A DNA stretch of 64,000 nucleotides from an uncultured Clostridia bacterium. Lineage in GTDB: Bacteria; Bacillota; Clostridia; Tissierellales; Gottschalkiaceae. The stretch spans positions 11,796-75,795 of the forward strand of contig CAZBAL010000006.1 of NCBI GenBank assembly GCA_964489735.1, in the 5' to 3' direction. Below are positions 1 through 11,638 of the stretch, in pieces (the stretch's first letter is position 1; every line of letters starts with the position of its first letter). Position numbers and translations under genes: made by a program. Below the pieces are notes generated by a model, which searched no databases, had not been told where the DNA came from, and saw only the letters and a program-made list of their open reading frames with translations.

Positions 1-490
1 CATCTAAAATAATAATTTCCGGATTTTTCACTATAGCTCTGGCAATCATAATTCTCTGCTGCTGTCCTCCACTGAGTTCATAGAATGGCTTTTTTATATA
101 TTCTCCCATTCCCATCTTTTCAATCGCGGTTACAGCTCTTTCCTTGTGCTTCTTTCTGGGAATTTTAATGAATCCGAACTCATCATATAGCCCCAAAGTC
201 ACAAGTTCAAGACAAGTTACAGGAAAACCTATCTTGCCCACTGTATTTACTTGAGGTACATACCCAATCTTAGCATACGACTTCATTTCATCTATAGATT
301 CACCAAGCACCTTAATACTTCCAAATTCTCTTTTCAATTCATTTAATATGAGCTTAATCAGTGTCGATTTTCCACAACCATTCTTCCCCTTTATCACCGC
401 AAAATCACCATGTTCAATCGATAAGTCCAGATCATCAATTATTCTTTCTCCATTATACCCGAACGACAAGCTCTCTATCTCAATAACATT
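1..490 (-). CDS. Metal (Zn/Mn) ABC transporter ATP-binding protein, 3' end runs off the window
   Basis: Not in the ORF track. Manual translation gives NVIEIESLSFGYNGERIIDDLDLSIEHGDFAVIKGKNGCGKSTLIK (Walker A) and later LSGGQQSRIMIARAIVKNPEIIILD (ABC signature, Walker B). Lies directly after the adcA-like gene. Start codon is ambiguous (see findings). Confidence 0.88.
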
Positions 491-500
491 TAATTCATCA

Positions 501-1808
501 CTACCTTAATGACTGGTAAATATTTTCTAAATTCATTTTCATAAGACCAATATAATCTTGCTTCTTCTGCTTTTGTTCCTCTGCTACAAACTCCATTGTA
601 GATAGAGGTGCTATTTCCGCTCCGACCTCTGATGCAATCGTTTCTGCACCTTTTTTAGAGCCGCCATATTCATAAAAAATCGTCTTTATATCATTTTCCC
701 TGCAATATTCAATAGTTTCCTGCACAGTCTTCAAATTTGGATCTTCCATTGATGTTAAGCCTTGTAACGGATGCTGTTCCAATTTGAAGTCCCTGCAAAT
801 GTATCCATATGCCTCATGAGGGACTACAAAATGCTTCTTCTCAGTCTTTGCAAATTTTTCTTCATATTCACTTTGAATTTCTTCTAATTCCTTTTTGTGC
901 TTCTCACAGTTTTCTTTAAAAAATTTTTCATTTTCCGGACTAAGTTCTATCAATGAGTTAGTTATTTCATCTAAGTACCTCTGAGCATTTATTAGCGAAA
1001 TCCAGGAGTGAGGATCATATGTCACAAGTTTCCCTTCTTTTTCTTCTGATTTTATTAATTTCATCTCTTCTGGCTCTAATATATTGTCTTCTCCATCAAC
1101 AAATAAATATGAAAGTGATTTTCCAGACTCTCTATCAGCAAAAACCAGCCAGTCACCTTCCTCAGGAATTTCAAAGTATATCAGTCCATGGTCATGCCCC
1201 ATCTCCAAGCTATAGCTCTTTTTATTTTCAACATTGAAAGTCTCTTTTTGTTTTACATTCTGTGAATCCTTGCCCATTATTTCATGACCTATCTTACTCA
1301 GTTCTTCTTCACCTTCAGAACCTTCCAACTTGTAAAATCCAACCTTCAAAGTTTTTTCGTGAGTGTGCCCAAAATCTAGTGAATATTTCTCTTTAGATAG
1401 ATTCATTTTTCCAGAATATTTAAAACTTCCCTCTGCTGCAGAGCTGCCAACTTCTATAAGTTCTGCCGACTCACTTAAATCTTTAAATTTCAGATTATTT
1501 GCGCTGTCTTTTATTTTTTCTATCCATGGTTCCACACCTGCTCCATTAACTATCATTAAATCAGCATCATTAACTTCTTTAATGTCTTTTGCAGATGGCT
1601 CCCAATGGTGAGCCTCCTTATCTTCCGGCATAAATGATATTAAATTTATCTTGTCCTCACCTATCTTATTGGTTAAATCATAAATAGGATAAAAAGAAGC
1701 ATAGACAGTTGGTTTTGTAGAATGCTTATTGCCAGAATTTCCACATCCTACAATAAATAAAACTGTAAAAACACCAATCAATGTAATAATATTTCTTAAT
1801 CTATTCAA
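501..1808 (-). CDS. Zinc ABC transporter substrate-binding lipoprotein (AdcA/ZnuA, cluster A-I) with a ~140-aa internal insert
   Basis: Lipobox LFIVGC; metal-ligand motifs EAHHWEP, DPHSW, PHEAY, TME; next to ZinT and ABC ATPase genes. Confidence 0.9.
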   Translation of the reverse strand: MNRLRNIITLIGVFTVLFIVGCGNSGNKHSTKPTVYASFYPIYDLTNKIGEDKINLISFMPEDKEAHHWEPSAKDIKEVNDADLMIVNGAGVEPWIEKIKDSANNLKFKDLSESAELIEVGSSAAEGSFKYSGKMNLSKEKYSLDFGHTHEKTLKVGFYKLEGSEGEEELSKIGHEIMGKDSQNVKQKETFNVENKKSYSLEMGHDHGLIYFEIPEEGDWLVFADRESGKSLSYLFVDGEDNILEPEEMKLIKSEEKEGKLVTYDPHSWISLINAQRYLDEITNSLIELSPENEKFFKENCEKHKKELEEIQSEYEEKFAKTEKKHFVVPHEAYGYICRDFKLEQHPLQGLTSMEDPNLKTVQETIEYCRENDIKTIFYEYGGSKKGAETIASEVGAEIAPLSTMEFVAEEQKQKKQDYIGLMKMNLENIYQSLR

Positions 1809-1842
1809 TATACTGACACCTCTAACAATATTTTTAATAAAT

Positions 1843-1884
1843 AAAGCTCATTTCTGTTATTTTAATTAACATCGATGAGCTTTT
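1843..1884 (-). terminator. Inverted repeat (AAAGCTCAT...ATGAGCTTT) between zinT and adcA; terminator or mRNA-stabilising hairpin
   Basis: 9-bp arms around a partly paired loop, just downstream of the zinT stop. Confidence 0.45.
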
Positions 1885-1914
1885 CACAATATTTCACAAT
1901 ATTCAACAATAAAG

Positions 1915-2613
1915 CTATTCTGTAATCTCCTGAATGAACTGCTCTGTTGTAGAATTTGGATCAACCATTGTTGGGAACCAGTCTTCCTTTGCTAGAAGCT
2001 CTTCAGGCTCTTCATTTCCATATCTGAAGTGGAAATGCTTAAGTCCATCTTCGCCATGAGCTGGCATCATTAGGAAATATTTGTACTTGGCATCTGGGTC
2101 CTTTGCAGCAAAAATGCTCCATTCAAGATCATGTTTCCCAAATTTAGTGACTTCTTTGCCTTTGTACTCATATTCTGCCGATTCGATCTCATTAGCTCCT
2201 TCTGACTTGAAACCATCATAAAGAGTTATTTTTTCACCATCAACTGACATGCCATCAAAATCTACTTTTCTTTTAGCAACAAGCTTATCTTTTTCTTCCT
2301 GTGCCGTAGTTCCTTCCTTTTGAGCTAATGTTTCAAAAGCAGATTGAATCTCTTCCTTCTCAAGATATGCACCCATATTGTTCCAGTCACCACTCCATGA
2401 GCTTAAGGATTCCTGTTCTTTAGATGTGCCACTATCTTCTCCCTCTTTGCTATCGTCGGAAACCTCAGCTTCTTTTAATTCTTTTTTATCATCTGTTGTT
2501 TCCACTTTTGCAGTATCTTCAGTAGGCTTGCCATTTTCATTATTGTCACCACATCCGACCAGTGCTGTACTCATCATCACTCCTGCTAACGTAATAGTAA
2601 GTAATCTTTTCAT
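1915..2613 (-). CDS. ZinT-family zinc-binding lipoprotein
   Basis: Lipobox TALVGC, acidic linker, then ZinT-like motifs LSSWSGDW, YEYKG, YKYFLMMPAH, HFHFRYG, WFPT. Confidence 0.82.
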   Translation of the reverse strand: MKRLLTITLAGVMMSTALVGCGDNNENGKPTEDTAKVETTDDKKELKEAEVSDDSKEGEDSGTSKEQESLSSWSGDWNNMGAYLEKEEIQSAFETLAQKEGTTAQEEKDKLVAKRKVDFDGMSVDGEKITLYDGFKSEGANEIESAEYEYKGKEVTKFGKHDLEWSIFAAKDPDAKYKYFLMMPAHGEDGLKHFHFRYGNEEPEELLAKEDWFPTMVDPNSTTEQFIQEITE

Positions 2614-2628
2614 TTGATAACCTCCGCT

Positions 2629-2643
2629 TGATAATAATTTTCA
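2629..2643. promoter_or_regulatory. Fur-family (probably Zur-like) 7-1-7 operator
   Basis: TGATAAT-A-ATTTTCA, one mismatch to TGATAAT-N-ATTATCA, just upstream of the zinT RBS; a weaker second copy TGACAAT-A-GATATCA at 2674-2688. Confidence 0.6.
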
Positions 2644-2708
2644 CTTTCATATTGTATCAGTCATTATTCTAAATGACAATAGATATCAAATAACACGGTG
2701 GAATTTTG

Positions 2709-2743
2709 TAAAAAAATCCCCCGGGAAATTTCCCAGGGGATCA
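2709..2743 (-). terminator. Rho-independent terminator of the moeA-mobB-fdh operon
   Basis: ATCCCC-C-GGGAAA/TTTCCC-A-GGGGAT GC-rich hairpin followed by a T7 run on the minus strand. Confidence 0.85.
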
Positions 2744-2755
2744 TTAAATCTTATA

Positions 2756-5497
2756 TTAGTTTTCATTTACTTGAATATGAAGATATGCATCATGCATAGC
2801 TTTAAGAGCTTCTTTTTCAGATTCAACCTTCTCTATCTTAACTGCTGAAATTTTATATTCTGCCGTCTTAGTAATAGGGTCAAAAGCTGAGTTAGTCAAG
2901 TCATTAACCGGAGACTCTTTGTAGTGGAACGTCATAAACATCATTCCTTTTTTAAGTCTGTCAGTTATTTTAATTCTAGTTACAATGCTACCTCTTCTAG
3001 AAGTCACTCTTATGAATGAGTCCTCAGTTAAACCATAAGCCTTCGCATCTTCAGGGTTAATCTCAGCAAGTTCATGAGGTCTTATACCATCAAGCGATTT
3101 GGACTCTCTAGTCATAACATTGTAGTGATAAAGCATTCTACCTGTTGTAAGCAGCATTGGATAGTCATCGCAAACAAGCTCTGCCGGTTCCTCATACTCT
3201 ACAGGTATCATTATACCTTTACCTATTGAGAATGTTCCTTTGTGCAGGAATTTAGTTCCTGGATGGTCTGTAGATGGACATGGCCACTGTAGACCTTCTT
3301 TCTCAATTCTTTCATATGTTATACCTCTATATGAAGCGATACATTCTCTCATTTCCTCAAATATATCTTCAGCCACTTTATAGTCAAATCCAGGTGCACC
3401 CATTTCATTAGCAAGATCACAAAGTATTTTCCAGTCAAGTCTAGCTTCTCCTGGCGGCTCAGCAGCCTTTCTTACTCTCTGAACTCTTCTCTCAGTATTT
3501 GTAAATGTACCGTCTTTCTCCGCATAACAAGTAGCTGGTAGAACAACATCAGCATATTTAGATGTTTCGGACATTATTATATTCTGAGTTACTAGAAAAT
3601 CTAAGTTCATAAGCGCTTTCTTAACATGGTTAGCATCCGGGTCAGTTAAAACAGGGTCCTCTCCCATTACTATCATAGCTCTGATACCATCGCCAGCATA
3701 TGCTGAGTCAAGCATCTCAGGAATTCTAAGTCCTGGATTAGTGTTAAGCTTAACTCCCCATCTCTCTTCGTACTCTTCAATTACTTCCGGATCATAAGCC
3801 TGTCTATATCCAGGGAAGTAGTTTGGAAGAGCCGCCATATCACAAGCACCCTGAACATTATTCTGACCTCTAAGAGGATTAACTCCAGAACACTCTTTTC
3901 CTAAGTGACCTGTTAACATAGCCAAGTTAGCTAGGTTCATAACATTGGCTGTACCAGTTGTATGCTCAGTAATTCCCAGAGTATAGAAAATACCAGCCTT
4001 ATCAGTAGTAGCATAAAGTCTAGCTACTTTATAAAGTGTTTCAACTGGAACCTCTGTTAACTCTGAAGTGTATTCAGGAGTGTATTTCTTAACAACTTCT
4101 GCAACTTCTTCAAAGTCAGCAACTCTCTCTTTTATAAATTCTTTATCATGTAAATCTTCTTTTATTATTATATGCATCAATCCATTGATCAATGCAGCAT
4201 CAGTACCTGATTTTAGAGGAACATGAATAGTTGCGAAATCCGCAATCTCAGTTCTTCTAGGGTCAATAACAATAAGCTCAGCACCTTTCATTGCTGCTTG
4301 CTTCATCTTATTCCCAATGATAGGGTGTGCTTCTGTTGTATTAGAACCTATTATAAATAATACATCATTATCGGCAACCTCATCTATAGAGTTTGTCATT
4401 GCTCCACTTCCAAATGTAGCTGCAAGACCTGCAACTGTAGGAGCATGTCAGGTTCTCGCACAGTGGTCAACGTTGTTCGTTTGAAGTGCAACTCTCATGA
4501 ACTTCTGGAACACGAAGTTGTCTTCATTGACACATCTAGCCGAGCTCAGCCCTGCTATTGCATCTCCACCATGCTTTTCTTTTATTTCCATTAATCTACT
4601 TGCAACGTATGCTATTGCTTCCTCCCATGAAGCTCTTTCAAATACACCATTTCTCTTTATTAGAGGGTATTTCAGTCTCTCTTCACTGTTGATCATGTCA
4701 ATGTGGAATCTTCCCTTAACACACATAGATTTCTTATTTACAACTGCATTTTCATATGGTGTAACCCCGATTACTTTTCCGTCCTTCACATTGAGGTCAA
4801 ACTGACAGCCTGTTCCACAGAAAGGACAAGTAGTAGTAACCTTTTTAACTTCCCAAGGTCTAGTTCCCACAAGATGTTTGTTAAGTATTGCTCCCGTTGG
4901 ACATTCTGAAATACACTGTCCACAGAATCTACACATGTCAGTGTTCAAATCTAAGTCGAATCCTGTGGCAACTTTAGCTTTTATACCTCTTCCAATGAAG
5001 TCAATTGCAGTAGTTCCTTGAACTTCTCTACATACATTTACACATTTACCACAAAGAATACATTTGTTCTGATCTCTAATCATAACCGGATTAGATGTGT
5101 CTAATTCATATGTATCCTTATTTTTCTTATATGGAGAACGACTTATTCCGTATCTGTAACAGTATTCCTGTAATTTACATGTTCCAACTTTATTACAAGT
5201 CAGACAGTCTTCTGGGTGATTCGCCCAGATAAGCTCAAGTAAATCTTTTCTAACTTTAACTACTCTAGGTGATTCAGTTTCTATCTCCATTCCTTCTTGA
5301 ACATTTTCTGAACAAGATGCTGCAAGCCTATCTCTACCTTTAACCTCTACAACACAGATTCTACAACCTGAAAATTTCTTATAAAAATCACTGTAGCAAA
5401 AGTTCGGTATATCAATACCTACACTCTGTGCAGCCTTCATAATAGTAGTGTCTTCTGTAGCCTGGACATCTATCCCGTTAATCTTTAAATTAACCAT
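2756..5497 (-). CDS. fdhA: Selenocysteine-containing formate dehydrogenase alpha subunit (N-terminal 2Fe-2S/4Fe-4S NuoG-like module plus Mo/W-bisPGD domain), 913 aa
   Basis: ORFs 4448-5497 and 2756-4399 are in frame and joined by TGA (4448-4450) in [30 protein letters not shown], the FDH active-site motif. Also CPFCGTGC, RGQNNVQGACD, and an fdhF-type SECIS. Confidence 0.95.
4403..4447 (-). promoter_or_regulatory. Bacterial SECIS element
   Basis: After UGA: CAUGCUCCUAC-AGUUGCA-GGUCU-UGCAGCU-ACAUUUGGAAGUGGAGC. The apical stem-loop closely resembles the E. coli fdhF SECIS (GGUUGCAGGUCUGCACC). Confidence 0.88.
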
Positions 5498-5503
5498 AAA
5501 ACC

Positions 5504-5998
5504 CTACCTTTCTCTAATCAATTTGTTTTTAATAAATTCTGCTAATGCAACTATTTGATTTGTGTTGAAAACAGGTACCCCTTCATCGGACTCATTTAAA
5601 TCATCTGAAACTATGCCGAATATATTTTTCCTGTCATCAATTCTAGGTTTCCCTAGCTCTTTTCTGAAAACTTCAATCTTTGGAAAGTCTTCATTTTTGT
5701 AGCCCTCAACTATTATTAAATCCACCCCTGTAATGCAATCTATAATTTCTCTTAGGCCTTTATTTTTTTTTAATTTTTTTATTACTATATAATCTTCATC
5801 TGAAGAAAGTGTAACAGATGATGCTCCTGATTTCAGGTGTATTGTACTATCTTTATTCTCTCCAATATCAAAGCTGCCTTTATGGTGCTTTACCGTAGAG
5901 ATTTCTAAACCAATGTCAGTGTAGTACTTTAAGAGCTGTTCTATTATCGTTGTCTTACCTGAATCAGAATACCCAGATACAAGAACAACTGGTATCAT
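5504..5998 (-). CDS. mobB: Molybdopterin-guanine dinucleotide biosynthesis protein B
   Basis: VSGYSDSGKTT P-loop, VKHH, DLIIVEGYK, PKIEV. Confidence 0.92.
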   Translation of the reverse strand: MIPVVLVSGYSDSGKTTIIEQLLKYYTDIGLEISTVKHHKGSFDIGENKDSTIHLKSGASSVTLSSDEDYIVIKKLKKNKGLREIIDCITGVDLIIVEGYKNEDFPKIEVFRKELGKPRIDDRKNIFGIVSDDLNESDEGVPVFNTNQIVALAEFIKNKLIRER

Positions 5999-7224
5999 CC
6001 TATCTCTCTCCCTTCAAGAAGTATTATCTCAACAACTTCACCTGCTTTAAGTCCATTACTAGGTGGCATAACATCTATAAGACAGTTACAAACTGTCATA
6101 GACTGTAAAGCACTAGACTTCTGATTTCTCATAATAGAAACCTTGTTTAAATCACCATCTATTTCAAAATAACCTCTTATCAGTCTTCTTCTTGGTGACT
6201 TCTTATTGAAATCTGTCTGCAGAATTGCTTTAACTTTTTTGCTGTCAGTGATTCTAAATCCTCTTATCTTCTTGATAACCGGTGTGACAATATAATCAAA
6301 GCTGATAAATGCAGCTCCAGGATTCCCCGATAAACCTATCAGAAGCTTATTCTTGTAGAAGGCTGAGAGCATTGGAGTTCCAGGTTTCATATCTACTCTT
6401 TTGAACAGTACCTCTGCATCCAATTTCTTATACACATCATATATAAAGTCATAGTCTCCAACCGAAGCTCCACCGGTTGTAATCACCATGTCTACATCAT
6501 CGATATTCTGCTTTATTCCATCTGCAATTTTTAATATATCATCGGTTGCTATACCTAGATTTACAGGAGTGCAACCAAACTTTCTCAATATTGAAGCTAT
6601 AGTAAAGTAGTTGCTATTGTAAATCTGACCGGGTTCTAACTTATCACCTAAAGAGACTATCTCTTTTCCGGTGTTTAATATGCCAATAGTCGGCTTCTTG
6701 AAAACTTTCACCTTTGTTTCTCCAAGACTAGCTAAAACTCCAATAATACCTGGATTTATCAGTTCGCCTTTTTCAGCAATCATATCTCCTAATGCAATAT
6801 CTTCACCAATTTGGACCACATTAGCATCTTTATTCAGTTTATACGGAATATATACAAAACCATCTTCCTCTAAAATATCCTCTTTCTTGATAACTGAATC
6901 ATATCCATCTGGAACCGGTGCTCCTGTCATTATTTTAATAGCGGTATCTTCTTCATAACCATCCTCATGCAAACTTCCCGCTCCAATGTATCCATGGATT
7001 TTGAATTTCTTAGGAGCTTCCTCTATTGATTCTGTTTCTTCATAGTTAATAGCGAAACCGTCTAGTGCGGATCTTCTGAAATTAGGTATATTAGTTTTAG
7101 ATACATAGTCTTCTGCAAGTATCCTGTCAAGCGCATCCTCTAAATAGACCTCTTCTGTTCCACAATCTGATATTCTATTTAAAAGAACAGTTCTTGCATC
7201 TTCTGCACTAATATTTTTTATCAA
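5995..7224 (-). CDS. moeA: Molybdopterin molybdo/tungstotransferase MoeA
   Basis: PNFRRSALDGFA, IMTGAPVPDG, NSN, TTGGASVGDYD, MKPGTP, LSGNPGA. Confidence 0.95.
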   Translation of the reverse strand: MIKNISAEDARTVLLNRISDCGTEEVYLEDALDRILAEDYVSKTNIPNFRRSALDGFAINYEETESIEEAPKKFKIHGYIGAGSLHEDGYEEDTAIKIMTGAPVPDGYDSVIKKEDILEEDGFVYIPYKLNKDANVVQIGEDIALGDMIAEKGELINPGIIGVLASLGETKVKVFKKPTIGILNTGKEIVSLGDKLEPGQIYNSNYFTIASILRKFGCTPVNLGIATDDILKIADGIKQNIDDVDMVITTGGASVGDYDFIYDVYKKLDAEVLFKRVDMKPGTPMLSAFYKNKLLIGLSGNPGAAFISFDYIVTPVIKKIRGFRITDSKKVKAILQTDFNKKSPRRRLIRGYFEIDGDLNKVSIMRNQKSSALQSMTVCNCLIDVMPPSNGLKAGEVVEIILLEGREIG

Positions 7225-7297
7225 TATCCCACCTCCTCTTTCGCAATTTCATACATAACTCTTTCAACCAGTGTAAAATATTATTACCAATTCCTGC

Positions 7298-7615
7298 ATT
7301 TTTTTAAAGTATATCGAATATTCTGCGTTATCTCATTGTAGACAGAGTATTCGAATATCTATATTCTTTACAAAGTATATAGACAAGAGTTTTTCATTTT
7401 CTTTCCAAAGTATATCGGTAGTTATACTTCGCTTTCTTTGTAAAGTATATCGTGTACCAACAAATCTCATACCTATACTAAGTGTTGTAAAGATACGCAC
7501 TTTCTATACATAGTATAACCTTATATATAGTCTCTATCTTTCTGTAAGATATCGAATCGCATAGCTTACTTTCTATTCTATTAAGTATAGAGCATTTCTA
7601 TATATAATAGAATCG
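7298..7615. repeat. Degenerate repeat-spacer mini-array; core TTCTTT-NN-AAAGTATATCG with a 35-bp period
   Basis: Near-identical 19-mers at 7364-7382, 7399-7417 and 7434-7452, separated by two unique 16-nt spacers; degenerate copies near 7298, 7344, 7485, 7502, 7540, 7576. Confidence 0.75.
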
Positions 7616-7811
7616 TTATACTCGGCTAAGTGTATGATATGCAGTTATTGATATTTTTGTCATACTGGAAAAACCAGCGTTATACTCATATATACAGTGC
7701 TATTCGCACATTAGTTATACAGTCTATACTTTTTAATTATACTATAGATATTACTGAATGTATATTAATTAATTATTTAACAGAGATTTAATATAAAATA
7801 ATTTTACTTAT

Positions 7812-7845
7812 AAAAAAACAGAGCTGATACAAATTATCAGCTCTG
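7812..7845 (-). terminator. Rho-independent terminator downstream of the XRE pseudogene
   Basis: Perfect 11-bp stem CAGAGCTGATA-caaat-TATCAGCTCTG followed by T7 on the minus strand. Confidence 0.85.
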
Positions 7846-8014
7846 AAAACATCTTCTCTATAAAATTATTTTTTTAAGTATTAGATCCCCCAAATATAAT
7901 AGAACGCCATAGACCCATTATATAACAAGTTGAATTTATATAGAGTGACATTCAATTTTTGTCATTGACAGATTTAGGCAATAATTGGTTTAATTGTATT
8001 AAACCACTATTCTA

Positions 8015-9522
8015 TCACTCAAATACAACTACATTTTTTGAAATCTGCTCTTCTAAAAACATAATAGTATCCTCTCTGGAGTATTTTTTATTAAAGTACT
8101 TAACTCTTTGATTTATAGTTTCCCATAATGCCATAGAAATTCTGTGTTCATTTGTAATAAACATCATGTGTGGATCTTTTAAACTAAAAAAAGCTGTCTT
8201 ATCAAGGTCTTTGCTGAGAATAGCGTATTCATCAACATCTCTATCTTCTACTAAGACAAGGCTATAATTTTCATTAGTTCTCAACAAGTGGATCATATTC
8301 TCCAAATGAATTTTCAATAAAGTTCTAGTATATGATATATTTATGCCAAATAAAGTACTGAACTCTGGTAAATTTATATCATTTCTGAATTTTATGATTT
8401 TAGATACAGGAATCACTTCTGTAAACTTATGTGTCCTAAGTAATCTATTGAAATTATCAGTCAACACATTATATACAAAGTCAAATTCTCTTGGCAATCT
8501 CGATTCAATAGACTTTTTTACTTCTTTAGGCATGGTGAATATCGCTGGAAAAAGATTATAAAGAACTGAGTCATTCTCTTTTTTCAGCAGTTCAATATAG
8601 TCCATCCAAAGTGATTCTTTATCTAAATAACTGTACTTGTTAAACGCCGGCAAACAAAGCTTTTTATAGCTATCGAACTCATTTGCCAGAGTATTTATAG
8701 CTTTTCCATCATTTATATAAATAGTCAATGCCCCTTCACCTTCCTCACCAACAGAATTAGAAGTGACAGCTGAAATTCCAGGAGCTACAAATAAAGTTCT
8801 TCTAATTGTACTGTCTTTTAGTTTTGGATAATAATATGAGTCAATTCTACCTGTCATATAAACAGGAATCCATTTTTGAACCGCTGCATTCATCTCTGTA
8901 ATCCTCTTTCAACACCATGTATAATATTGATTCTGCACCCTTTTTTCAATATCTTTGTCAGAAGACCAACTAAAGCTTTTGTGAATTCAAAATCACTGAA
9001 CCAACTCATATTCTCATCACTGAACAACAGTAATGTAATCACTTTATCTGATTCTGCTACACTTGTTAGAAATCTCAAATATGCCTCTTATTTACCATCA
9101 TTTCCATAATAGAATGTTGTATCTGACATGTTCGTACTCAGTTCTTCTGTGCTGTGTTCACAATCCATTATATTATTATCAGATGGAAGATTTGCACCCT
9201 CAACTAACCAATTGTATATAATTTCATTCAATAACTGATTTTCAGTTTTTCTATTTATTCCGTCTTCCAGCAATAAATTAATAAAATCATTTTTCAATTT
9301 CTCATCTTTCTCTATCATCTTTGCAAAATAACTGGACATAGGCAATAAGAAAGTCGGATTTTTGGGAAGTTTTCTTTTTCCCGTTCTCAAACGCGATAGA
9401 TAAGATGGATCTACAGAAATCGCATTTGATAGAGTGCTGTTTTTTATCTTTGTTATTTCCATCAAAGCATTCAATTTTTTAGAAAACAAAATACCCCTCC
9501 AATTCTCAGTTCCATTATTCAA
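8015..9522 (-). pseudogene. XRE-family HTH transcriptional regulator with a large C-terminal domain (~500 aa), interrupted by an in-frame TAA and a 1-bp frameshift
   Basis: HTH KLNALMEITKIKNSTLSNAISVDPSYLSRLRTGKR. TAA at 9088-9090 is followed in frame by EAYLRFLTS. A frame change at ~8893 (GGA TTA CAG AG|ATG AAT GCA) joins to ORF 8015-8893. Confidence 0.8.
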
Positions 9523-9589
9523 ATTATCACATATATGCTATAACCACTATATCATATATAATATGCTCTTGAATACATTGACAATCTGA

Positions 9590-11638
9590 TTAATTGAATT
9601 CCAATCTGTCAGTATCAACCAAGAGCCTCTCAATTTTATTTCTTAAATTCATATTTTCACTATTTTCTAATAGTGGATCATCAGACACAATATCATTTAC
9701 AAGTATCTGTACCTCTGATAGGATTTTCATATCCCTTGGCAGTTTAGATACTCTCAGCTCTGGAATTCCATGTTGTCTGAATCCAAAGAATTCACCAGGT
9801 CCTCTCAGCTCTAGATCTTTTTCTGAGATTATAAATCCATCATTTGTCTGCTCAAGTATCTTTATTCTTTCTTTCGATATTTCACTTTTCCCATCTGAAA
9901 GTAAAATGCAGTAAGACTGATATTTTCCTCTACCAACTCTCCCTCGTAATTGGTGAAGCTGTGCTAACCCAAAGCACTCAGCATTTTCAATAACCATAAT
10001 ATTAGAATTGGGTACATCCACACCCACTTCGATTACAGTAGTAGAAACAAGTATATCTATTTCTCTTTCTTTAAATAGTTCCATTACAGTATCCTTATCG
10101 GCTGCCTTCATCTGTCCATGAAGAAGTCCTATTTTTAAATCTTGAAATTTCTCATTCAGTTCTTGATATACAGATTCTGCAGATTTCAAATCCAGCACTT
10201 CTGAATCTTCTACCATCGGGCACACTACATAAGCCTGCCTACCTTCTAAAACCTGTTTTTTTACAAACTGGTAAACATCAGCTCTGGATCTATAGGTCCT
10301 TCCGTATGTCTTTATTTCTTTTCGCCCAGGTGGCAGTTCATCAACTATAGTAATGTCTAAGTCGCCATAGACAATAAGTGCTAGAGTTCTAGGTATTGGT
10401 GTAGCAGTCATTACCAATATATCAGGATTTATACCTTTATTTGATAATCTAGCTCTCTGATTTACACCAAATCTGTGCTGTTCATCTGTAATTACAAGTC
10501 CTAATTTTTCAAACTCTATATAATCCTCTATAAGAGCGTGGGTTCCTACAACTACATCAATTTGGCCAGATTTTATTTTTTCTAAAACTTCTCTTTTCTC
10601 TCTTGCTTTCATATTGCTCACGAGAAGCCCAACTTCAATATTGAACTTTTCCAAAAGTGTACTCAAACTTCTATAATGTTGTCTTGCTAATATTTCTGTC
10701 GGAGCCATCATAGCACTTTGAAAACCTGATTTGTAAGACTTTAAAAGAGCAAATGCAGCTATTACTGTTTTTCCTGAACCAACATCACCTTGAACCAGTC
10801 TGTTCATTTGCCTATCTGCTTCCATATCTTTTTCTATTTCTTTTATAGCCTTATATTGTGCACCTGTCAGTTTAAAAGGCAGAGCTTCCTGGAACTTCTC
10901 CTCTAATTGAATACTTGGAAATCTAGTAAAGGAAACATCACTATTCCTTCTGTTTTTAAGCATAATCAGACCCATCTGCAATACTAAAAGTTCATCAAAT
11001 GCAATTGTATTTCTAGACTTTAAATAATCATCTCTTCCATCAGGAAAATGAAGATGTTCAATAGCTTTTGAAATTGAGAAGAGATCGTATTTATCTCTTA
11101 TATACTCGGGCAAGTCATCAATTTCTTTTGTATACTTTATAGCTTCCCTTACAAACTTTATCATTTCGTTATTTGAAAGCCCTTTGGTCAATCCGTATAT
11201 GGGCTCCACTTTTCCTATATTGCTATTATCTAGATTCTTAGCAATCATAGGTGAATTAAACTCTTTTATTATGCCATTCACTTTGACTTTTCCAGAAATA
11301 TATACCCTGTCATCTTCCTTGAACTGGTTCAACCTATAATTCTGATTGAAAAAAGTAATATAGGCATTTTCTGTACCATCAGAAACCAGAACTTTTACAA
11401 TGCTCATATTTCTTCTCGGTCTATATATTGTCGGTCTTCCTTTTACAGTAACCTGAAGACTTATCAGTTCTCCGTCTTTAGCATCTTTTATAGTTCCTGT
11501 TCTTCTTCGGTCTTCATAATTTACAGGAAAATAGTATATAAGGTCCTCTACAGTATTAACTTCAAGATTAGATAACAGTTTTTTCTTTTTATCTCCGATT
11601 CCTTTAAGAGTATCAACTTTTAAATCCAAATCACTCAA
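9590..11638 (-). CDS. recG: ATP-dependent DNA helicase RecG
   Basis: QGDVGSGKT, DEQHRFGV, MTATPIPRT, QLRGRVGRG, DLELRGPGE. Confidence 0.98.
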   Translation of the reverse strand: MSDLDLKVDTLKGIGDKKKKLLSNLEVNTVEDLIYYFPVNYEDRRRTGTIKDAKDGELISLQVTVKGRPTIYRPRRNMSIVKVLVSDGTENAYITFFNQNYRLNQFKEDDRVYISGKVKVNGIIKEFNSPMIAKNLDNSNIGKVEPIYGLTKGLSNNEMIKFVREAIKYTKEIDDLPEYIRDKYDLFSISKAIEHLHFPDGRDDYLKSRNTIAFDELLVLQMGLIMLKNRRNSDVSFTRFPSIQLEEKFQEALPFKLTGAQYKAIKEIEKDMEADRQMNRLVQGDVGSGKTVIAAFALLKSYKSGFQSAMMAPTEILARQHYRSLSTLLEKFNIEVGLLVSNMKAREKREVLEKIKSGQIDVVVGTHALIEDYIEFEKLGLVITDEQHRFGVNQRARLSNKGINPDILVMTATPIPRTLALIVYGDLDITIVDELPPGRKEIKTYGRTYRSRADVYQFVKKQVLEGRQAYVVCPMVEDSEVLDLKSAESVYQELNEKFQDLKIGLLHGQMKAADKDTVMELFKEREIDILVSTTVIEVGVDVPNSNIMVIENAECFGLAQLHQLRGRVGRGKYQSYCILLSDGKSEISKERIKILEQTNDGFIISEKDLELRGPGEFFGFRQHGIPELRVSKLPRDMKILSEVQILVNDIVSDDPLLENSENMNLRNKIERLLVDTDRLEFN

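Follow-up and report, generated by a model that had tools for sequence, protein, structure and literature searches.

A short array of repeats with a 35-bp period lies at positions 7298 to 7615 of the window, the 64,000-nucleotide stretch of contig CAZBAL010000006.1 analysed here, which comes from an uncultured member of the Gottschalkiaceae (Clostridia). It belongs to the leader of an operon for molybdenum/tungsten cofactor and formate dehydrogenase, moeA-mobB-fdhA(Sec). Comparison with operator-like boxes of the same and related genomes indicates that the repeats are probably operator copies of the molybdate/tungstate (ModE-type) regulon of this lineage, which would have been amplified in this leader in steps of ~35 bp. 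The sites fit an operator defined elsewhere, are conserved relative to the spacers between them, cluster uniquely in this leader, and lie between the only conserved promoter and moeA.

The window's own genome (G000, 1.97 Mb) was compared with five other genomes of the same family (G001-G005), three of which (G001-G003) belong to the same genus; the closest named relatives are assemblies of Andreesenia angusta, G001 being one of them. Three further relatives, S1, S2 and P0005, are contigs recovered through a MoeA protein look-up, and their MoeA proteins share 89%, 68% and 68% identity, respectively, with that of the window. S1 represents three separate SRA assemblies. A metagenome scan for nearer strains returned distant MoeA relatives only.

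The repeat array

Three copies of TTCTTTNNAAAGTATAT(C/A)G start at 7364, 7399 and 7434, with start-to-start distances of exactly 35 and 35 bp. On the plus strand they read TTCTTTACAAAGTATATAG (7364-7382), TTCTTTCCAAAGTATATCG (7399-7417) and TTCTTTGTAAAGTATATCG (7434-7452), the copy at 7364 ending in TAG instead of TCG; in the direction of transcription the repeats read CGATATACTTTNNAAAGAA. Self-comparison by offset gave 27 windows at offset 35, against a maximum of 13 in 30 shuffles. The sequence AAGTATATCG occurs 10 times on both strands of the 1.97-Mb genome, and three of the 10 occurrences fall inside the 586-bp leader stretch.

For identity comparison, the units were cut into a 21-nt site and a 14-nt spacer. 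The sites agree at 14-18 of 21 positions, whereas the spacers agree at only 2-5 of 14, which is the chance level for their composition (Fisher p 0.0003-0.006 in five of six pairs). Tandem Repeats Finder reported nothing on 6800-8100 at a minimum score of 30, because only part of each unit is conserved. The earlier note, which described three near-identical repeats 35 bp apart with unrelated spacers, was accurate in its coordinates, and it rightly set slippage aside: with spacers at chance identity and an empty Tandem Repeats Finder output, the array does not class as a slippage-type tandem repeat (variable number tandem repeat).

Counted from the moeA start codon, the forward copies fall on a lattice of ~35 bp, at -92, -128 (decayed), -158, -193, -228, -296, -330 (decayed) and -368. 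The four best copies are termed b, c, d and e in the order from the promoter towards moeA (Table 1).

Resemblance of the repeats to a ModE-type operator

The operator of which the 19-mer forms the right three-quarters is a 24-bp palindrome, CGnTATAC-N8-GTATAnCG. In the 19-mer, the left half is represented by its three innermost bases (TTC; ideal TAC), which are followed by the centre TTTNNAAA and by a right half, GTATATCG, that is intact; the pseudo-palindrome TWCTTT-NN-AAAGWA, singled out in the earlier note, is the centre of this operator. The half-site CGATATACT and the 24-bp span from CG to CG match the ModE consensus of Escherichia coli, ATCGnTATATA-N6-TATATAnCGAT (PMC545781). The half-sites of copies b, c and e read CGATATACT and that of copy d reads CTATATACT, with matrix scores of 12.3-16.0 bits. 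In b, c and e the right halves are perfect, and the left halves retain 2, 4 and 1 of 8 matches, respectively. Operator d is part of a 26-nt palindrome (7358-7383).

The pattern CGnTATAC-N8-GTATAnCG was searched across the family, with weight on matches carrying no or one mismatch. This search found 15 boxes with at most one mismatch in the family (f1), against none for the reversed control pattern, and elsewhere in the order the pattern stood at background. Boxes with two mismatches were at control level (8 versus 8) and were used only with supporting gene context or conservation in a relative, as for the fdhD box, which is matched in G001; matches with three mismatches were fewer than those of the reversed control and were not used. 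A perfect box precedes the ModA-type gene (SBP_bac_11, TIGR01256) of G000 (C7:53898). Perfect or one-mismatch boxes lie upstream of ModA/TupA-type SBP_bac_11 genes in G001, G003 and G005, and a two-mismatch box in G004. Other strong matches in G000 stand upstream of fdhA2, fdhD and a second moeA. In G005, a ~1-kb AT-rich non-coding stretch (locus L089, 1416-2400) carries three full boxes (1501, 1723 and 2122) before a xanthine-dehydrogenase-type FAD subunit gene, and outside the family boxes precede an SBP_bac_11 gene (G465) and xanthine dehydrogenase (xdh)-type FAD subunits (G449, G439).

A 12-nt half-site matrix was trained on 14 boxes, none of them from the moeA leader or from contig C35, which carries fdhA2. 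In 7225-7810 the matrix found eight half-sites of at least 8 bits, six of them of at least 12 bits, and the reversed matrix found none. The expectation for this stretch is 0.34 from genome density, and shuffles gave means of 0.48 (mononucleotide) and 0.91 (dinucleotide, maximum 5 in 300). The moeA leader is the densest half-site cluster in the genome, any other 586-bp stretch holding at most four. The degenerate copies that the earlier note placed around the triplet were recovered, either by this matrix from unrelated sites or by eye, but the copy at 7305-7316 turned out to be strong (15.4 bits) and not decayed. A further indel-bearing remnant was seen by eye at ~7486-7497.

Table 1. Features of the moeA leader and the operon behind it (positions in the window)
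Feature	Positions	Strand	Sequence and basis
Box half-site, inverted	7678-7689	+	CGTTATACTCAT, 13.6 bits, matrix scan; counterpart GAGTATAACG or GAGTATAGCG in S1 and G003 leaders
Box half-site, inverted	7614-7625	+	CGTTATACTCGG, 12.1 bits, matrix scan; aligns with GGTGAGTATAACG of S1
Weak half-site	7581-7592	-	CTCTATACTTAA, 10.2 bits; within 39-nt imperfect palindrome 7575-7613
Decayed copy	7542-7554	-	CGATATCTTACAG, 1-nt deletion in core; positional counterpart of S1 box -205; by eye and S1 alignment
Half-site	7509-7520	-	GGTTATACTATG, 11.9 bits
Operator b (predicted)	7429-7452	.	Right half GTATATCG perfect (half-site 7441-7452, 15.4 bits); of the left half only the inner TTC remains
Operator c (predicted)	7394-7417	.	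Right half perfect (half-site 7406-7417, 16.0 bits, the best of the leader); left half 4/8
Operator d (predicted)	7359-7382	.	CTATATTCTTTACAAAGTATATAG; near-full 24-bp palindrome, 11/14 specified positions of CGnTATAC-N8-GTATAnCG
Decayed copy	7341-7352	-	CGAATACTCTGT, 1-nt deletion; fills the lattice position between d and e; by eye
Box e	7289-7318	-	TTCGATATACTTTAAAAAAATGCAGGAATT; half-site 7305-7316, 15.4 bits
Promoter-like site	7736-7764	-	TATACA, 17-nt spacer, TATAAT; promoter scan 10/12 matches; start of the ~510-nt moeA leader
Operon behind the leader	2756-7224	-	moeA 5995-7224, mobB 5504-5998, selenocysteine formate dehydrogenase alpha subunit 2756-5497; ORF lists and Pfam

The leader also contains a 39-nt palindrome (7575-7613, 77%), ATTCTATTAAGTATAGAGCATTTCTATATATAATAGAAT, made of two box-like halves whose CG ends point inward, the reverse of the operator arrangement.

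Several further box matches were seen beyond the window. An exact copy of the first 21 nt of box e (TTCGATATACTTTAAAAAAAT) lies on contig C35 (C35:5557-5577; locus L005, 1499-1519), 120-140 nt before a second fdhA, likewise with selenocysteine; the orthologous region of G001 lacks this copy, which suggests a recent gain of the site. The genome's only molybdenum/tungsten cofactor (Moco/Tuco) riboswitch (RF01055, 54 bits) lies on the minus strand at C3:8783-8894 (L127, 1501-1612). The gene behind it resembles aldehyde:ferredoxin oxidoreductase by eye, without a family search, and a box half-site CGTTATACTGCA stands ~60 nt before its TTTACA-17-TATAAT promoter, so that the layout is reminiscent of E. 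coli moaA. Tandem boxes in G001 are 39 bp apart at L085 (1129-1191) and L092 (1462-1524) and 26 bp apart at L099 (1475-1524). The tandem perfect boxes precede paralogous secreted proteins without a Pfam match and a leucine-rich repeat (LRR)/InlB-repeat surface protein, and the G000 homologues of these surface-protein genes also have box matches (C22:1078-1168, C30:12501).

Locus and leader

All genes at the locus lie on the minus strand, in the order recG (9590-11638), an XRE-like gene (8015-9522), a terminator (7819-7845), the promoter-like site, the leader and moeA. The array thus lies, as first described, between the terminator and the moeA start (7224). From the promoter-like site to that start, ~510 nt contain no credible open reading frame (ORF). 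The promoter block ATATACATT-N13-TAGTATAAT is kept in G001, G003/P0004 and S1, and the gene order moeA-mobB-fdhA is also present in relatives.

In fdhA (2756-5497, minus strand), two ORFs represent one alpha subunit through an in-frame TGA at 4448-4450 (…NNVDHCART-U…), and the second fdhA on C35 shares the in-frame stop (…NNIDHCARL-stop). The XRE-like gene has a weak HTH_60 match, belongs to a family of ~500-residue proteins, and has become a pseudogene through an in-frame TAA (9088-9090) and a frameshift near 8893. The same genome encodes an intact paralogue of 505 residues at C43:10204-11718. The family is patchy and occurs in 41 of 399 genomes sampled in the class.

History of the array

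The block containing box e lies 92-158 nt before the moeA start in five lineages (G000, S1, S2, P0005 and G001), in which the flanks cannot be aligned. Box e therefore looks like a phylogenetic footprint and the ancestral copy. In G001 and G003, two species of the window's genus, the promoter block comes immediately after recG, and the short leader behind it has a single CGATATAYTT box; the moeA locus of these two genomes has neither an XRE gene nor an array. In S1, an XRE gene occupies the corresponding place, and the promoter and the first 190 nt of leader are likewise shared; the S1 leader has two strong boxes (-205, -100) and a weak one (-135), and the 35-bp triplet is absent. The leader of S2 has three direct ATCGATATACTTT boxes at -205, -151 and -55. 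In all, the moeA leaders of relatives hold one to three such boxes each.

When the leader was compared by BLAST with 40 relatives, the only matches were to the G001 promoter block and box e, which indicates that the ~420 bp in between are lineage-specific. Since even the closest relative, S1 (89% MoeA identity), lacks the 35-bp triplet, the array points to local amplification. Most likely, an ancestral box was amplified locally and stepwise, with the triplet as the most recent or best-kept part; whether G000 gained copies or S1 lost them is judged from an alignment of repeats that is difficult. A multi-copy mobile element, such as a miniature inverted-repeat transposable element, was rejected as the source, as the leader occurs only once in its own genome. 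A conserved leader peptide after box e was likewise rejected, the short ORF not being kept in S1, S2, G001 or P0005.

A candidate regulator

A 118-residue ORF consisting of the ModE N-domain only (ModE-N) is encoded at C7:9592-9942, directly upstream of modA-modB (TIGR00637, E=4e-19). Its protein matches the E. coli ModE entries 1b9m and 1o7l in the Protein Data Bank (PDB) as well as the N-only protein 2ijl. Orthologues precede modA in G001, G003 and G005, where the box lies in the interval between them, and each genome of the genus has one ModE-N homologue only. Homology and position suggest that the ModE-N protein binds the boxes. A separate 68-residue Mop/TOBE protein is encoded on contig C12, and ModE in these organisms appears to be split into a putative N-domain-only DNA binder and a free Mop protein.

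Proposed mechanism

We propose that one ancestral box, e, was amplified into a lattice of at least eight half-sites, of which e, d, c and b remain near-consensus at -92, -158, -193 and -228. The sites of ~21 nt would have been held constant while the 14-nt intervals drifted to random. The predicted binder is the ModE-N protein encoded beside modA-modB on another contig. At each position, a strong and a weak half-site would together accommodate a dimer, and neighbouring dimers, 35 bp apart from centre to centre with gaps of 11 bp, would cooperate. Only one promoter is conserved and the boxes follow it, so that their occupancy would most likely block or loop out transcription through the leader, coupling moeA-mobB-fdhA to molybdenum/tungsten (Mo/W) status. 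Repression is a guess by likeness to ModE at modA, where the operator covers the start site. An alternative would be activation, from a weak proximal promoter overlapping box e (TTTAAA-17-AATAAT), a hexamer pair that is not conserved in S1. If the ModE-N protein is indeed the binder, changing the core from GTATATCG to GTCGATCG would abolish specific binding.

A more elaborate variant seems rather improbable. In this variant, the sensor-less ModE-N protein, perhaps with the 68-residue Mop protein in trans, would use the operator lattice in the transcribed leader as a cooperative roadblock or loop that makes a steep Mo-versus-W switch for an operon encoding a tungsten/selenium formate dehydrogenase, or else the lattice would be a decoy that sets a threshold for the whole regulon, the regulon then including secreted and surface proteins of unknown function.

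Several observations weigh against assigning the repeats to ModE. The candidate regulator scores 68 bits against TIGR00637, under the curated cut-off of 98.5, and lacks the Mop sensor domain. Only one half-site is good in each of copies b, c and e, whereas E. coli ModE binds a full palindrome, and 35 bp correspond to 3.3 helical turns, which places neighbouring sites on different faces of the helix. The identical copy of box e at fdhA2 is oppositely oriented and is not kept in G001. In G001, the genes behind the best boxes encode secreted or surface proteins that have no known connection to Mo/W, so that either the regulon or its regulator may be broader than Mo/W. Finally, the sign of regulation given above is itself a guess.

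Other candidate explanations of the units were tried and rejected. Each 35-bp unit might have been a promoter module, but no usable hexamer spacing was seen by eye in b, c and d, and the promoter scan lists only 7308-7336 and 7280-7308. Look-alikes of the Spo0A box, the SinR site (GTTCTYT), sigma-H promoters and LexA sites fit only some copies, and none explains the 24-bp palindromes.

Alternative explanations

The most serious rival, albeit a fairly unlikely one, is a different dimeric transcription factor that recognises CGATATACT-N6-AGTATATCG and governs both Mo/W genes and surface proteins, with ModE-N not being the binder. In G001, both perfect boxes and three of the five one-mismatch boxes are tandem sites before secreted or LRR surface proteins, whose G000 homologues also have matches, and the ModE-N score is under its cut-off. 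Moreover, the variable position is A (CGA...) in the boxes of the leader and the surface proteins and C, G or T in those of the transporters. Yet the geometry is identical to that of the ModE consensus, boxes lie directly at modA beside modE-N in G001, G003 and G005, and one half of the G001 modA box is CTATATAC, as in the surface-protein boxes. Each genome in the genus has a single ModE-N homologue, and the analysis yielded no other candidate regulator. Slightly less probable still is that the array is functionless debris of an old, decaying 35-bp tandem duplication, in which the 19-21-mers would look conserved through chance or short-tract gene conversion. This would agree with the absence of the triplet from S1 and with the clearly decayed, indel-bearing state of several flanking copies. 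However, neutral decay would be even, whereas conservation within the unit is sharply bimodal; the conserved part coincides exactly with the operator defined at other loci and in other genomes, and box e is kept across five lineages. A tract of 19-21 nt is, besides, at or below the usual length for homologous conversion.

An RNA-level element in the moeA leader transcript, be it a set of sites for an RNA-binding regulator, a structured leader or a small-RNA precursor, has little probability. The strong copies all share one orientation downstream of the conserved promoter, and the fold of the leader RNA is more stable than that of shuffles (z = -2.6 for 7290-7470, -3.1 for 7225-7730); but the DNA palindromes themselves produce this signal, S1 does not keep the predicted hairpins, and CTTT-NN-AAAG forms no hairpin with a loop of only 2 nt. 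Apart from noise (miRNA and snoRNA models), no Rfam family matched 6900-8200 even at E<=10, and the Moco riboswitch (RF01055) gave no match there at the same threshold. Furthermore, the box is inverted in the same leader (7614, 7678) and at fdhA2, and perfect palindromes precede transporter genes. The idea of a leader processed into small RNAs, raised in the earlier note, thus finds no Rfam match to lean on and is at odds with copies that occur in both orientations and upstream of promoters elsewhere.

That note had also proposed a phased multi-operator array for the neighbouring XRE protein, decaying along with its pseudogenised regulator. An operator array remains the best reading, but the XRE-like protein is very improbable as its regulator. 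The gene directly adjoins the array, and both the gene and the enlarged leader are limited to the G000/S1 lineage. The box, on the other hand, predates the gene: G001, G003, S2 and P0005 have it in the moeA leader, recG directly precedes that leader in G001, G003 and S2 (the P0005 contig shows only 201 nt upstream), and G001-G005 contain no XRE homologue at E<=1e-10. The motif was expected beside intact XRE homologues, the check set beforehand in the earlier note; across 29 homologue loci in the class it is at or below background (0.025 per kb, versus 0.040 per kb genome-wide in G000), and the intact G000 paralogue has no array. The gene is broken and the sites are intact, four copies being near-consensus amid randomised spacers, which does not fit joint decay, and the box fits operators at molybdate-transporter genes in genomes without the XRE family. 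Least credible of all is a miniature CRISPR-like array or an iteron-type array of a mobile element, for which only the repeat-spacer form with its fixed period speaks. CRISPR repeats measure ~23-50 nt and their spacers, of foreign origin, ~26-72 nt, with cas genes or a leader close by; iterons are direct repeats next to a replication initiator gene or an origin on a mobile element. The repeats here, at 19-21 nt, and the spacers, at 14-16 nt, are far smaller, and the real CRISPR of this genome has an unrelated repeat. No spacer match was meaningful: the only exact 16-mer match (C13:38843) falls by coincidence on the stem of a terminator next to a tRNA. The leader resembles none of 72,556 plasmid or 50,697 phage records. 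The ORFs of 1-11000 include no cas gene up to ~5 kb on either side, and no rep gene is near, the flanks being recG, the XRE-like pseudogene and moeA. The real CRISPR is found at a contig end (C5:1-1553, L116), with a Cas1 gene (284 bits) beside a ~33-nt repeat of 67-bp period.

Significance and comparison with known systems

Assigning the repeats to a ModE-type regulon would place a 590-bp "empty" stretch of the annotation in a defined regulon and remove the mini-CRISPR, small-RNA and orphan-XRE readings. The operator model CGnTATAC-N8-GTATAnCG could be used to find Mo/W control in purine-fermenting anaerobes of the Tissierellia type, for which the literature searched contains no experimental work on a split ModE (N-domain binder plus free Mop). 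The leader would also be an evolutionary example of a binding site multiplied in steps of ~35 bp within one leader, with selection visible on the site only, and the relatives with one to three copies form a natural series for relating operator number to metal response. It opens no long-standing question, as ModE-type transcription-factor sites are well known.

The closest known counterparts are the ModE operators of E. coli at modA, moaA and dmsA, which share the half-site core CGnTATA, the placement at genes for molybdate uptake, Moco synthesis and molybdoenzymes and, within the leader most fully in copy d, the 24-bp CG-to-CG inverted-repeat geometry, with a ModE N-domain homologue beside modA here. 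By contrast, E. coli has one palindrome per promoter, whereas the moeA leader has at least eight sites, mostly single good half-sites, directly oriented, on a lattice of ~35 bp; the inner hexamer is TATAC(T) instead of TATATA, the candidate regulator lacks the Mop/TOBE sensor domains, and the sites here are predictions. Likewise, the control region of E. coli moaA, with a ModE site and a Moco riboswitch, belongs to a Moco-related operon with a long regulatory leader and control that depends on Mo, but the moeA leader here has no riboswitch and owes its length to repeated protein-type operators. The Mo-boxes of Rhodobacter capsulatus (MopA/MopB) are similar in combining a ModE-family winged-helix regulator with AT-rich palindromic boxes at Mo-dependent genes. 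Short ModE proteins without Mop domains beside modABC have been predicted by comparative genomics in Desulfovibrio, where the predicted sites differ and follow the consensus CGGTCACG-N14-CGTGACCG (PMC545781).

Arrays of Mo-boxes are not described in the literature searched. The multi-box control regions of the relatives, namely the xdh region of G005, the tandem pairs of G001 and the moeA leader of S2, resemble the present leader in carrying the same box several times: G005 has three full boxes within ~650 bp, G001 has pairs spaced by 39 bp and S2 has three direct half-sites. However, their spacings are 39, 54, 96, 222 and 399 bp, and none has a 35-35-bp triplet or eight matches within 400 bp. 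ModE-type boxes at Mo/W genes are textbook knowledge; the unusual features of this case are that so many sites lie at regular spacing in a single transcribed leader and that the history of their amplification is visible.

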